A stretch of DNA of 11,607 nucleotides from a virus. Lineage: Duplodnaviria > Heunggongvirae > Uroviricota > Caudoviricetes. Positions 2,931-5,900 of the stretch are shown piece after piece. The stretch lies in the IMG/VR virus record IMGVR_UViG_2850808358_000010, one strand, 5' to 3'. A program made the position numbers. Positions within the stretch are counted from its first letter, which is position 1, and each line of letters begins with the position of its first letter.

Positions 2931-5900
2931 GCCTGCTGAGCTAAGTCGGCGCTGGCCCACCACCGAGGACTCGAACCTCGCACCGTCAACTTAGAAGGTT
3001 GATGCTCTATCCGGATGAGCTAGTGGTGGTTGGTGGCCCTTGCTGGACTTGAACCAGCGACCTGGCGATTATGAGTCGCTCGCTCTGACCAACTGAGCTA
3101 AAGGGCCGGAGGCAGAATAATAACCATATGTCATCACATCTGCAAACTCATCTGACCACCAGCACGTTTAACGTCCTGTGCCGTTTCTGTGTGGCGTAGT
3201 AACCACTCTTAACAGGATATTCAACTTTTTACGATCGTAAAGTTTTCGGAAAAAATTTTTAAAACCGCATCAACCGCTCCACCAGTTGCTCTTTACGGGC
3301 AACGATCCACCCGTGTTGCTCCAGATAAAATTTAAACCGTTCCAGAGTACATACCATCGCATCGGCGGGTACCTTTTCCGTGAACTCAACCTGACCGTGT
3401 TTATCGAAGTGGCTCAGTAATGCGCATCCATCATTTTCGATAGATGTGTTTTGTGCCGCTGGTGGCTGTTTCTGGTTGAAATAACAGTCTTCCAGTTTTT
3501 CGAACACTTCCCACGCCTGATCGGTTTCGAGCATTTTGGCGTGACGGGCTGCGCCACGTTCTGTCCAGAGGATGAGGGAGCGAACGTTACGGGCAATTTT
3601 CACAGAAACTCTTAAAGAGTTTTCGTTCTTCAACTCTCGTAACGCATCACCTTCTATCAGGAAAAAATGTTTACCTTCTATAAACCGTTCTTTGTTTCGA
3701 TTGAAATTGTTTGTCAAACGCTGGCGCTCTGTTCCGTACAAATCAGCCAGCAGCTCTGTTGTCATGACAGGAAGATGGTTATGCGTAAGTGACGGAAGTT
3801 TTTCAATAGACGTGCGATTCATAGACATGTCCTTTCGAATATTTTGATTTACCCCTTTTGAGAGGGTGACCGGGCGCTCAAAACCGTCGAAAGTCGGCGG
3901 GCGTATTTCCATTGCTGGTATTGTATTAGCCGCACACCCGGTCATAAACCAAGAATTCTGGACACAAAAAAACCACATGGCTATCGGGTGTGGATACCGC
4001 TTTCGAGGTGTTTTGAGCACCGCGGGGAAATGTAAACTGCAAACCTGAAACTGTCAACACCGTCAGGTTCCAATCATCGGGTGGTGAGACGCACAGGGTT
4101 GGAACTACCGGGAAACCGACCGGCGAGCTTTTCAGCTCCCCCATGCGCCCCACCATAATTCAGATGTGCGCGTGCATACGACAATAAAAAACACGCTCGC
4201 GGCGTGTGTCTGTCGCGGTCTCTATCCGGGGTTCCAATCCCGACGCCAGATTTTGCTGGCGCGTGAGGAATATAGCCCCGGACAATGTGTCTGGTCAAGC
4301 ACCTACATAATTCGTTCTACGTATCTGTCCATCTCCAGCCTGATATCAAGCATCATCAACATGCCATCAATAACCCCTTCCGCTTTCTGCAGGCGCTTGC
4401 CAATACAGGTATCCGAACACCCATGTTTCCGTGCCAGACTCATAAAAGTCATTCCACCTACGTAATAATCCACCAGCAAATCGTGCAAATCCTGATTTTT
4501 CTTGTTCAACCGGGCCATACAGCCACAAATTATCATTGCATCATCATCAGAACACTGAGGGCGTGATTTCACTTTCGACGGAATTAACCCTTTAAAACCA
4601 GCAGCGATCGACGCCCAGGATACATCTTCATGAGTGTTTGCAGCCCAAGCCCCCCACCGTTCCATAACCTGCTGAATATCACGCGCCATCGTTATCACCT
4701 GTGATTTCGTAAATCTTCACGCCCAGTCGCCCACCAGGAACGAGCTGACCGCGCACAATATTGATTTCATCAAACTGCTCGTCGTCTATGAGTAGTCCGG
4801 CATGCGTCAGCGCATCCAGTGGTGCTTTCAGGATATTGTCCAGGTCACGACGGCGCTTATCCGGTGGCTCTGCAATAATCTTTATCGCCAGCCTTCCGGA
4901 CTAATGCCGATCAGTTAAGGATCAGTTGACCGATCCAGTGGCTGTGTAAGAATCCGGAAACGCTCACTCGTTTCCGGATTTTTTTATGCACATTGGACAG
5001 GCTCTTGATCTGGTATCCCGTTACGATTCTCTGCGTAACCCACTGACTTCTCTGGGGGATTACCTCGACCCCGAACTCATCTCTCGTTGCCTTGCCGAAT
5101 CAGGTACTGTAACGCTACGCAAGCGCCGTCTTCCCCTCGAAATGATGGTCTGGTGTATTGTTGGCATGGCGCTTGAGCGTAAATAACCTCTTCACCAGAT
5201 TGTGAATCGCCTGGACATCATGCTGCCGGGCAATCGCCCCTTCGTTGCCCCCAGTGCCGTTATTCAGGCCCGCCAGCGCCTGGGAAGTGAGGCTGTCCGC
5301 CGCGTGTTCACGAAAACAGCGCAGCTCTGGCATAACGCCACGCCGCATCCGCACTGGTGCGGCCTGACCCTGCTGGCCATCGATGGTGTGTTCTGGCGCA
5401 CACCGGATACACCAGAGAACGATGCAGCCTTCCCCCGCCAGACACATGCCGGGAACCCGGCGCTCTACCCGCAGGTCAAAATGGTCTGCCAGATGGAACT
5501 GACCAGCCATCTGCTGACGGCTGCAGCCTTCGGCACGATGAAGAACAGCGAAAATGAGCTTGCTGAGCAACTTATAGAACAAACCGGCGATAACACTCTG
5601 ACGTTAATGGATAAAGGTTATTACTCACTGGGACTGTTAAATGCCTGGAGCCTGGCGGGAGAACACCGCCACTGGATGATACCTCTCAGAAAGGGAGCGC
5701 AATATGAAGAGCTCAGAAAACTGGGTAAAGGCGATCATCTGGTGAAGCTGAAAACCAGCCCGCAGGCACGAAAAAAGTGGCCGGGACTGGGAAATGAAGT
5801 GACAGCCCGCCTGCTGACCGTGACGCGCAAAGGAAAAGTCTGCCATCTGCTGACGTCGATGACGGACGCCATGCGCTTCCCCGGAGGAGAAATGGCGGAT

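Follow-up and report, generated by a model that had tools for sequence, protein, structure and literature searches.

A putative mobile c4/CI-type RNA-immunity cassette centred on an sRNA-Xcc1 RNA in a prophage late leader

Described RNA-immunity systems and the locus under study

In the immI region of phages P1 and P7, the targets of the c4 antisense RNA are the boxes a1 and b1, located upstream of the RNA, and the boxes a2 and b2, located downstream of it over the ribosome-binding site of icd. In the literature on this region, c4 is described as the antisense RNA that controls the antirepressor Ant (Citron and Schuster 1990, 1992; PMC12197685, PMC7313666). The immunity region of the satellite phage P4 comprises the PLE promoter, seqA, the terminator t1, the CI RNA and seqC (Sabbattini 1995, Briani 2000 via PMC4825925; PMC10111431), and the Rfam families isrK and C4 have been equated with P4 seqA and CI (PMC3632133, PMC10111431). 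In Gifsy-1, the IsrK/STnc1160 (orf45)/AnrP locus lies directly downstream of a Q gene and is served by a Q-independent promoter; the leader terminator stops most transcripts, which leaves a short sRNA, those that read through form a translationally silent mRNA of an antirepressor-like protein, and the short leader RNA, acting in trans, relieves this silencing (PMC4825925). A further RNA family, sRNA-Xcc1 (Rfam RF02221), has been described in Xanthomonas campestris, where it is a trans-acting sRNA encoded on an integron and controlled by HrpG/HrpX (Chen 2011 via PMC7313666). An Xcc1 RNA has also been placed beside an ORF6N gene in a paper on APSE phages, which gives no mechanism (PMC7313666).

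To compare a new locus with these systems, we analysed IMG/VR record IMGVR_UViG_2850808358_000010; the window, i.e., the whole stretch of DNA that was analysed, is 11,607 nucleotides long. The prophage probably belongs to Shigella, judging from 72-aa gene calls in public assemblies. The minus-strand segment at 3966..4057 is likely to provide the promoter and the 5' leader of an RNA-immunity cassette of the c4/CI type, one that is mobile and self-contained. On the minus strand, the cassette would be ordered as promoter, leader with boxes a1 and b1, hairpin with a U7 tract, Xcc1 RNA, boxes a2 and b2, and ORF6N gene (Table 1). About 100 related loci, spread over several bacterial orders, display its anatomy, its complementarities and their covariation. 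Phage RNA immunity of this kind is known, and the cassette is most likely an instance of it, in a form not described in the literature searched.

Table 1. Features of the late leader and its surroundings, from high to low position in the window
Feature	Position (strand)	Motif or parts	Basis and remarks
Q antiterminator gene	4303..4698 (-)		Pfam PF06530 Phage_antitermQ, E = 2.4e-52
pR'-like promoter, module 1	4269..4298 (-)	TTGACC-18-TATATT	Promoter scan, 10/12; ends 7 nt before the IsrK match
c4-a1b1 match	4275..4223 (-)		Rfam RF03163, 50.1 bits; overlaps the IsrK leader
IsrK-type leader with tR' terminator	4186..4262 (-)		Rfam RF01394, 77.5 bits (gathering 50)
C4/CI-type antisense RNA, module 1	4077..4160 (-)		Rfam RF01695, 71 bits (gathering 45)
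Second C4 target box	4067..4073 (-)	TTGGAAC	Orphan downstream target of module 1, not followed by a gene
Sigma-70 promoter, module 2	4029..4057 (-)	TTGACA-17-TACATT: -35 TTGACA 4057..4052, 17-nt spacer, -10 TACATT 4034..4029	Sequence and promoter scan; 10/12 against the consensus
Predicted leader RNA, module 2 (about 56 nt)	3966..4021 (-)		Start near 4021, where the conserved block begins in every relative
a1 hairpin	4021..4007 (-)		Leader part
a1 box	4018..4010 (-)		Leader part
b1 box	4006..4000 (-)		Leader part
CGG	3999..3997 (-)	CGG	Leader part
Terminator hairpin	3993..3973 (-)	CCACA 3993..3989, 11-nt loop 3988..3978, UGUGG 3977..3973	5-bp stem
U-run	3972..3966 (-)	U7	With the hairpin, closes the leader
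sRNA-Xcc1 RNA (C4-like, tRNA-shaped antisense RNA)	3860..3943 (-)		Rfam RF02221, 77.4 bits (gathering 53)
b' loop of Xcc1	3893..3887 (-)	CTTTCGA	
a' of Xcc1	3884..3876 (-)	GTTTTGAGC	3' single strand
a2 box	3856..3862 (-)	CTCAAAA	Downstream copy of a1; read from the sequence; invariant in alignment A1; position recurs family-wide
b2 box	3838..3832 (-)	TCGAAAG	Overlaps the Shine-Dalgarno sequence
Shine-Dalgarno sequence of the ORF6N gene	3834..3830 (-)	AAGGA	8 nt ahead of ATG 3822
ORF6N-domain gene (antirepressor-type cargo)	3259..3822 (-)		Pfam PF10543, E = 8.8e-21

Two leader and antisense-RNA modules behind the Q gene

Module 1 (4298..4077), the phage's own IsrK-C4 unit, is a direct homologue of the Gifsy-1 IsrK locus, and the loop of IsrK hairpin 2 (TTGGAAC, 4237..4231) is complementary to its C4 RNA. 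The C4 RNA of P13374 and TR01 has a gene after it, the annotated start of which overlaps the RNA—a 'regulatory protein' in P13374 and an ORF6N-domain protein in TR01. Module 2 is stacked behind module 1 in the late leader, with 129 nt between the last U of tR' (4186) and its -35 hexamer, in agreement with the distance of about 130 nt given in a first-pass annotation of the same DNA. That annotation had also likened the second promoter and hairpin to a pR'/tR' unit. The comparison is apt in that both units share the design of a leader followed by an antisense RNA, namely an IsrK (seqA-like) leader with a C4 RNA in module 1 and a second, orthogonal leader with an Xcc1 RNA in module 2. Unlike the Gifsy-1 locus, module 2 uses a promoter of its own and an Xcc1-type RNA; it is a second unit, unrelated in sequence, and its leader is shorter, with a single hairpin ahead of the terminator. 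A cmscan search of 3780..4330 at E up to 10 returned neither isrK (RF01394) nor c4-a1b1 (RF03163) within 3966..4057, no Rfam family matching the module-2 leader and, at 3943..3860, RF02221 alone with no match to C4 (RF01695). An Rfam sR58 match at 4044..4081 reached 19.7 bits against a gathering score of 55 and is noise.

The Xcc1 RNA is 84 nt long and sits between the hairpin and the ORF6N gene; the gene does follow the hairpin, as previously noted, but the intervening RNA had been missed. It is a full-length, above-threshold member of its family; like the C4 consensus, and in the manner of the C4/CI immunity RNAs of P1 and P4, it combines an outer stem with two hairpins and a CACCC tail. The RNA, which has a tRNA-like fold and a conserved (U)AUG ahead of the outer stem, is probably cut out by RNase P, by analogy with C4. 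A small ORF that begins at the 5'-edge AUG of the RNA (orf45/icd-like) is not a family-wide feature of the module-2 relatives, which sets them apart from Gifsy-1; this frame is open past the RNA in 21 of the 25 loci of one subgroup but in no locus of the other. The b' loop and the a' strand are complementary to the leader boxes a1 (4018..4010) and b1 (4006..4000), and also to a second copy of these boxes, a2 and b2, downstream of the RNA. The duplex of the leader (4021..3997) with Xcc1 is predicted at -33.7 kcal/mol, as compared with -14.2 kcal/mol for the leader with the neighbouring C4 RNA.

This layout shares several features with P1/P7 immI: an antisense RNA of tRNA-like form, here putatively processed as well, with its target on one and the same transcript; a pair of short boxes that occurs on either side of the RNA gene, with one copy of each box upstream and one downstream; and a downstream copy over a ribosome-binding site, with an antirepressor-type gene as the regulated one. 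There are differences as well. The RNA of module 2 scores as sRNA-Xcc1 and not as C4, b2 covers the Shine-Dalgarno sequence of the antirepressor-type gene itself rather than that of an upstream icd-like ORF, and a1 and b1 are almost contiguous and followed by the hairpin and U-run, in a leader without a c4-a1b1 match. Unlike the published sRNA-Xcc1, the description of which gives no cis-linked targets, the RNA of module 2 and of about 100 phage loci has its own boxes on both sides, with antirepressor-type genes after them.

ATG 3822 is the conserved start of the ORF6N gene in relatives. Eight downstream proteins sampled from other loci contain KilA-N, P22_AR_N, Phage_pRha or AntA domains, and 78 of 99 distinct downstream proteins form one BLAST-linked network. 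On this annotation-level evidence, the ORF6N protein may be an antirepressor.

Comparative evidence for boxes, promoter and hairpin

The correspondence between boxes and loop was examined locus by locus. Both b1 and b2 match the locus's own loop in 65 of 99 loci, with 51 distinct loops among them, as opposed to 2.6% in a control that combined the loop of one locus with the flanks of another. Antisense matches of at least 7 nt were found upstream in 91 and downstream in 80 of 107 loci, against 45.6 and 25.0, respectively, with shuffled antisense sequence. Close relatives display a three-way compensatory change of b1, loop and b2, with the triplets TCGAAAG/CTTTCGA/TCGAAAGG, TCAGTAG/CTACTGA/TCAGTAGG and CAAGTAG/CTACTTG/CAAGTAGG. 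At least 51 distinct loop variants occur among the roughly 100 loci, which recalls P1/P7 heteroimmunity, where the box sequence likewise defines specificity. An ordinary 'moron' promoter with a leaky terminator, driving the ORF6N gene and the tRNA array without any RNA-based control, would be in keeping with the promoter-like sequence and the cargo genes downstream; however, it accounts neither for the Rfam RNA between terminator and gene, nor for the three-way covariation of loop, b1 and b2, nor for the position of b2 on the Shine-Dalgarno sequence, and we consider it highly improbable.

The promoter and the hairpin with its U7 tract, which the first-pass annotation had placed at 4029..4057 and 3966..3993, are both present as described. 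Neither exceeds expectation in this sequence alone: the window contains 3 promoter-like sites scoring at least 10/12 (1.9 expected) and 14 scoring at least 9/12 (12.7 in shuffles), so that the promoter by itself is not above chance, and the hairpin is weak on its own, with the 63-nt stretch folding at -10.7 kcal/mol (z = +0.67) and the isolated structure (5 bp, 11-nt loop) at about -3.9 kcal/mol. The terminator scan omitted the hairpin, as its 11-nt loop is longer than the 8-nt limit of the scan. Because these single-sequence statistics are not significant, the case for both elements is comparative. A chance promoter-like match beside a chance hairpin, which the same statistics would allow, is refuted by comparison, as about 100 loci in several bacterial orders keep the position, the function and the pairing; its probability is negligible.

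The promoter is real by comparison with related loci. In 65 diverse relatives, the best sigma-70 match just 5' of a1 averages 9.1/12 (4.9 in control windows), and a match of at least 9/12 is found there in 45 of them, against 1 of 65 control windows. Four unrelated promoters were identified among the relatives, TTGACA-17/18-(TACATT, TATATT, GATACT or TATAGT), which share nothing beyond the hexamers and all stop 7–9 nt ahead of the same conserved leader start. Since these four sequences are mutually unrelated, no Q-binding element is kept at the module-2 promoter. The consensus match is strong, as is the conservation of the position by unrelated sequences, and this promoter may be active in the lysogen.

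The genuineness of the hairpin, in turn, rests on compensatory stem changes in relatives. A covarying stem of 4–7 bp abuts the U-run in all 44 distinct leaders, among which there are 23 distinct arm pairs, each of at least 4 bp. As one MAFFT register could not hold both loop-length classes, these were placed in separate alignments (A4 and A5); stem pairing is kept in 97.3% and 92.3% of cases in the two classes (18–50% in slid controls), with double-sided changes in 3 and 2 of the 5 pairs, respectively. Moreover, the leader CGG (3999..3997) pairs with a CCG at 3987..3985, one base past the 5' arm of the terminator. The pairing holds in 97.7% of cells, and 2 of its 3 pairs display double changes, which amounts to only two independent compensatory events; the observed values were reached by only 0–4 of 500 shuffles. 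To our knowledge, the CGG:CCG pairing has no counterpart in P4. The contact suggests that terminator strength could be coupled to whether the leader is bound. We also considered an 8-nt segment of the terminator loop and 5' arm (3992..3985) that is complementary to the 5' strand of Xcc1, and rejected this complementarity as a family feature, as it is not conserved (own-locus mean 4.41, cross-locus mean 4.15).

A different reading makes the short leader RNA the main product, as a constitutive, Hfq-type trans-acting sRNA with targets in the host or in other phages, as described for StxS and IsrK; the terminator would be a simple one without regulation, possibly made more stable by a pseudoknot. 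The succession of promoter, RNA of about 56 nt, hairpin and U7 is indeed what an sRNA gene looks like, module 1 yields the IsrK and StxS sRNAs at the homologous position, and the geometry of CGG:CCG is that of an H-type pseudoknot whose junction is a single base, a structure that would stabilise the terminator. The only strongly constrained leader sequence, however, consists of the two boxes, which follow their cognate antisense loop from locus to locus; this suggests that the partner of the leader is the linked RNA. As the main explanation this reading is unlikely, and it is compatible with, not exclusive of, a c4/CI-type cassette. Identity with the EHEC anti-sRNAs AgvB and AsxR was rejected, those being convergent sRNAs 3' of moron genes and thus differently positioned.

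The segment might instead be protein-coding, either as a 72/76-codon ORF (4156..3926) or as an N-terminal extension of ORF6N, the frame of which is open to GTG 4020; a 72-aa gene has been called at the 4156..3926 site in GCA_020874455.2 and GCA_031665755.1. This is extremely unlikely in view of the 76-aa ORF lacking a Pfam family, the indels of 1–4 nt within the segment among relatives, the substitutions, which compensate one another within RNA stems and boxes instead of falling at synonymous sites, and a UAG within b2 that closes the upstream frame in close relatives.

Finally, we examined the genomic contexts in which the cassette is found. It occurs without an adjacent Q gene in at least six different contexts, among them the nin region of Stx phages (e.g., P13374 and TR01) and, in RM8082, a prophage end beside ompW and tail-fibre genes. 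Phages of Acinetobacter and Pasteurella display the same architecture ahead of KilA-N or Ant genes, and the cassette precedes antirepressor-type genes in Shiga-toxin phages that include P13374 (of the 2011 O104:H4 outbreak strain) and the Stx2c phage 2851. The mosaic joining proposed earlier is supported by these data, as module 2 occurs alone elsewhere, with homology starting there at the predicted transcription start. The companion proposal of a second pR'/qut/tR' late-control unit, i.e., a Q-responsive promoter and terminator from another lambdoid phage that provide a second Q-loading or Q-utilisation site, did not hold. Although module 2 lies in the late leader, 129 nt past tR', and repeats the promoter/short RNA/terminator layout of the upstream pR'/IsrK/tR' unit, the same cassette travels without a Q gene and is located far from any in the Stx phages, RM8082, Acinetobacter and Pasteurella; the promoters that serve the leader have hexamers alone in common, with no Q-binding element conserved; and the conserved parts are boxes complementary to the downstream RNA. 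We therefore deem such a unit very unlikely.

Predicted operation of the cassette and its implications

Drawing from the systems described above, the c4/CI-type cassette can be envisaged to operate as follows. The module-2 promoter would fire without Q, and the majority of transcripts would end at U7 to give a short leader RNA. Read-through would produce the antisense RNA, probably released by RNase P as for C4, and pairing of its b' and a' segments with b2 and a2 would block ORF6N translation. The leader would form a nearly continuous duplex of about 23 bp with the antisense RNA, far better than that with the downstream target, and could serve as a decoy or anti-antisense RNA (IsrK-like), as an autoregulatory site (in the manner of P4 seqA plus t1), or as both. 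Production of the antirepressor would then depend on how termination and read-through are balanced and, in this prophage, Q-modified polymerase arriving from pR' should ignore both terminators.

Several elements of this scheme have parallels in P4, with which the module appears to share, in the same order, a constitutive promoter, an upstream target, a Rho-independent terminator, an RNA gene and a downstream target. Termination at P4 t1 reportedly needs both the CI RNA and seqA and is said to serve CI autoregulation (work attributed to Briani in 2000); t1 is the closest precedent for the module-2 hairpin and U7. Unlike P4, where control is exerted mainly via transcription termination of replication genes, module 2 has its downstream box on a ribosome-binding site. 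Folding with the antisense-binding region free or blocked predicted an antisense-induced attenuation switch in E. coli-type leaders; such attenuation is not evident for the variant in the window, because its own leader lacks, in the folding prediction, the GCGG...CCGC antiterminator hairpin of the E. coli-type relatives. The analogy with Gifsy-1 may likewise not transfer fully, since there the long transcript is silenced by cis pairing and the small ORF in the C4-like RNA is translated.

These considerations bear on the cargo gene, for which the first-pass annotation had suggested Q-independent expression in the lysogen. While transcription may indeed be Q-independent, translation is most likely silent by default, because the antisense loop covers the ribosome-binding site—an expectation derived from box complementarity and from the precedents of P1 c4 and Gifsy-1 IsrK. 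The model predicts the ORF6N 'cargo' to be an RNA-gated antirepressor and not a freely expressed moron.

A broader proposal, which we put forward tentatively as possible but short of probable, is that the sRNA-Xcc1 family, so far described only as a Xanthomonas integron sRNA, is the repressor RNA of a widespread, hypervariable, antirepressor-gating cassette in many proteobacterial phages. The leader would act as an antisense-sensing terminator with a pseudoknot-like CGG:CCG contact, setting the ratio of decoy leader to repressor RNA, and the stacking of two orthogonal cassettes within the late leader would link antirepressor release to Q antitermination.

The analysis assigns a predicted mechanistic role to an RNA family that is widely annotated by genome pipelines and for which the published description concerns virulence-regulator control in a plant pathogen. 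It also defines an unannotated leader RNA motif, composed of a promoter, a1/b1 boxes and a terminator that covaries and makes a conserved contact through its loop. The specificity loops could affect prophage cross-talk and the induction of toxin phages, and the many natural specificities constitute a ready set of candidate orthogonal RNA switches.

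Two antisense-RNA modules in the late region

The promoter and hairpin at 3966..4057 on the minus strand, which the first-pass annotation had placed correctly, form the cognate leader of a second antisense RNA, sRNA-Xcc1. Taken alone, neither element stands out: promoter-like sites of at least 10/12 number three in the window against 1.9 expected, an unremarkable count, and the 63-nt leader fold is no better than shuffles (z = +0.67). No Rfam family covered 3966..4057, even when E values as high as 10 were admitted, and the hairpin was skipped by the terminator scan because its loop spans 11 nt.

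Features of the late region, including the target boxes of the second module
Feature	Position	Strand	Basis
Q gene	4698..4303	-	PF06530
Promoter pR', TTGACC-18-TATATT	4298..4269	-	promoter scan
c4-a1b1	4275..4223	-	Rfam; overlaps isrK
isrK	4262..4186	-	Rfam, 77.5 bits
tR' hairpin with U6	ends at 4186	-	terminator scan
C4 antisense RNA	4160..4077	-	Rfam, 71 bits
Second promoter, TTGACA-17-TACATT	4057..4029	-	sequence reading and scan
Box a1, GCUCAAAAC	4018..4010	-	complement of a'
Box b1, UCGAAAG	4006..4000	-	complement of b' loop
Second hairpin: CCACA, 11-nt loop, UGUGG, U7	3993..3966	-	sequence reading
sRNA-Xcc1	3943..3860	-	Rfam, 77.4 bits; between second hairpin and ORF6N gene
b', hairpin loop CUUUCGA	3893..3887	-
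a', single-stranded GUUUUGAGC	3884..3876	-
Box a2, CUCAAAA	3862..3856	-	sequence reading; shorter a1 copy
Box b2, UCGAAAG	3838..3832	-	recurrence of b1
ORF6N gene (ATG 3822)	3822..3259	-	PF10543
Four tRNAs	3107..2797	-	array Met-Arg-Thr-Gly
Holin, lysozyme, Rz	2120..948	-	gene annotation

The first module (4298..4077) consists of a seqA-like leader, IsrK, which also matches c4-a1b1, and a C4/CI-type RNA downstream of it. isrK and C4 correspond to phage P4 seqA and CI, and such pairs have been noted in lambdoid prophages (PMC3632133; PMC10111431); given this equation and the Rfam matches, the pR'/tR' unit is therefore an IsrK-type leader ahead of a C4-type RNA, the layout also found in Gifsy-1 (PMC4825925). 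The late promoter region thus also serves as an RNA-immunity module in the style of P4 and P1, an arrangement shared with Gifsy-1 and many Stx phages. The C4 box TTGGAAC lies in IsrK hairpin 2 (4237..4231) and again just past the C4 RNA (4073..4067), where ten bases separate it from the second -35 hexamer and no gene comes after it. The relatives P13374 and TR01 carry a gene after the C4 RNA, its annotated start overlapping that RNA and its product named an ORF6N-domain protein in TR01; in the window this gene is missing and the second module is joined straight onto the first, which supports the earlier proposal of mosaic joining.

Elsewhere in the region, a promoter-like site (TTTGCA-18-TATTAT, 9/12; 3146..3117, minus strand) directly precedes the tRNA array, which may have its own promoter there. 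Upstream of Q, before the DnaB helicase gene (8134..6743) is reached, lies an IS4-family transposase gene (DDE_Tnp_1, Nterm_IS4; 5202..6314, plus strand), apparently from an IS that inserted into the nin region; where loci encode an identical ORF6N protein, the gene immediately upstream of Q is RusA.

Target boxes and their covariation

Boxes a1 and b1 both fall inside the promoter–hairpin segment, a1 being displayed in a small hairpin (GGUG-CUCAAAA-CACC), and b2 overlaps the Shine-Dalgarno sequence AAGGA, 8 nt ahead of the conserved ORF6N start. Leader 4021..3997 is predicted to pair almost without interruption with the Xcc1 RNA (-33.7 kcal/mol) and to reach only -14.2 kcal/mol with the C4 RNA next to it, which makes the two modules orthogonal; the leader–Xcc1 pairing is also predicted in cis, within the read-through transcript of 208 nt.

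Block 4021..3839 recurs at ~87% identity in several places ahead of antirepressor-type genes, both in Stx phages (P13374, phi191, 2851, TL-2011c, Shigella Ss-VASD and POCJ13) and, in quite different contexts, in E. coli prophages. Across these close relatives (alignment A1), a1, a' and a2 are invariant and b1, b' and b2 vary in concert: TCGAAAG, CTTTCGA and TCGAAAGG in the window, TCAGTAG, CTACTGA and TCAGTAGG in four E. coli prophages, and CAAGTAG, CTACTTG and CAAGTAGG in TR01 and P13374. Homology among the types of TR01 and the related loci L015 and L024 starts at GGTGCTC, where transcription is predicted to begin. The sequences before this point are of four unrelated kinds, and in all of them TTGACA is followed, after a 17/18-nt spacer, by a good -10 hexamer. 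Between ~60 and 25 nt ahead of the leader start, one promoter variant (L015, L016, L032) has an inverted repeat, TGTCAACAT...ATGTTGACA, whose right arm overlaps the -35 hexamer. The repeat resembles an operator at which a protein repressor would act in addition to the RNA control. The related viral contig L024 has an Rfam isrI match (112 bits; 8358..8454, minus strand) that lies ~1 kb further downstream than the cassette.

A pattern scan of viral contigs yielded 120 loci with 107 distinct cores. Matches of at least 7 nt to the Xcc1 loop or 3' strand occurred upstream in 91 and downstream in 80 of the 107 (45.6 and 25.0 with shuffled antisense sequence). Both b1 and b2 matched their own loop at 65/99 loci, comprising 51 different loops, against 2.6% in cross-locus controls. 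Where a1 and b1 formed an ordered pair (65 loci), the sequence immediately upstream gave a best sigma-70 match of 9.1/12 on average (controls, 4.9), and 45 of these loci reached at least 9/12 versus one in controls. Acinetobacter phage 4316 and Pasteurella phage Pmp3 have the full layout, each with its own boxes. The downstream protein has an ORF6N domain in the window and KilA-N, P22_AR_N, Phage_pRha or AntA domains in eight proteins sampled from other loci; 78 of 99 distinct downstream proteins belong to one BLAST-linked network. Some phage contigs have two Xcc1-type RNAs in tandem, with different loops (L015, 4971..5054 and 5547..5630; L051, pattern matches at 6672..6694 and 7201..7223), and a Xylella paper lists five copies ~380 nt apart; arrays of such cassettes seem common.

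The leader terminator and possible coding

A 4-7-bp stem abutting a U-run was found in 44 distinct leaders, with 23 different arm pairs, and among close relatives the stem changes from CCGCG/UGCGG to the compensatory CCACA/UGUGG. Because loop length differs, two classes were counted separately: with 9-nt loops (A4), 97.3% of cells are paired, with double-sided changes in 3/5 pairs (slid controls, 18-47% paired); with 11-nt loops, the window included (A5), the values are 92.3% and 2/5 (25-50%). The loop is unusually large, with a conserved CCCG(A/U)NAG. Moreover, a CGG after b1 pairs with a CCG exactly one base past the terminator's 5' arm; the pairing is kept in 97.7% of cells, the observed values were reached by only 0-4/500 shuffles, and two compensatory events occurred (CCG:CGG in L148, CGU:GCG in an Acinetobacter clade). 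This geometry fits an H-type pseudoknot, which would make the terminator more stable. For leaders of the E. coli type, the CGG is predicted to sit instead in a GCGG...CCGC antiterminator hairpin, lost when a1-b1-CGG is blocked; folding the window's own leader variant, free or so blocked, predicted no switch of this type. In P4, termination at t1, between seqA and cI, reportedly needs CI RNA and serves autoregulation, as Briani and colleagues are said to have found in 2000.

Upstream of the ORF6N ATG, the reading frame stays open as far as a GTG at 4020 (4020..3822, minus strand), with an in-frame AUG (3945..3943) exactly at the Xcc1 5' edge. In close relatives the upstream frame stops at a UAG inside b2, 9 nt ahead of the ORF6N ATG, an arrangement that would suit translational coupling. 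Beyond the Xcc1 RNA, the frame that runs through it remains open at 21/25 loci in one subgroup and at none in the other. A 72-aa gene called in public assemblies (4144..3926, minus strand), spanning the C4 3' end, second promoter, leader and part of Xcc1, is probably spurious: it matches no Pfam family and its frame is broken by indels in relatives.

Proposed control of the ORF6N gene

Beyond the cassette anatomy and covariation demonstrated here, we propose that the second promoter would act independently of Q and yield mostly the ~56-nt leader, with Xcc1 RNA and ORF6N mRNA arising from read-through transcripts. Pairing of b' with b2 and of a' with a2 would let the Xcc1 RNA block the ribosome-binding site of ORF6N, as c4 does in P1; the leader, as the better partner, could titrate it or feed back on termination, in the manner of IsrK and P4 seqA/t1. 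In the lytic phase, polymerase that has started at pR' and been modified by Q should pass both terminators, placing leader and Xcc1 RNA in cis at 1:1, and ORF6N translation may be released.

Systems of the c4/CI type are already well known. The sole relevant note in the searchable literature concerns APSE phages, where an Xcc1 RNA adjoins an ORF6N gene, mechanism not given; an Xcc1-type RNA as repressor and its leader motif appear undescribed there.
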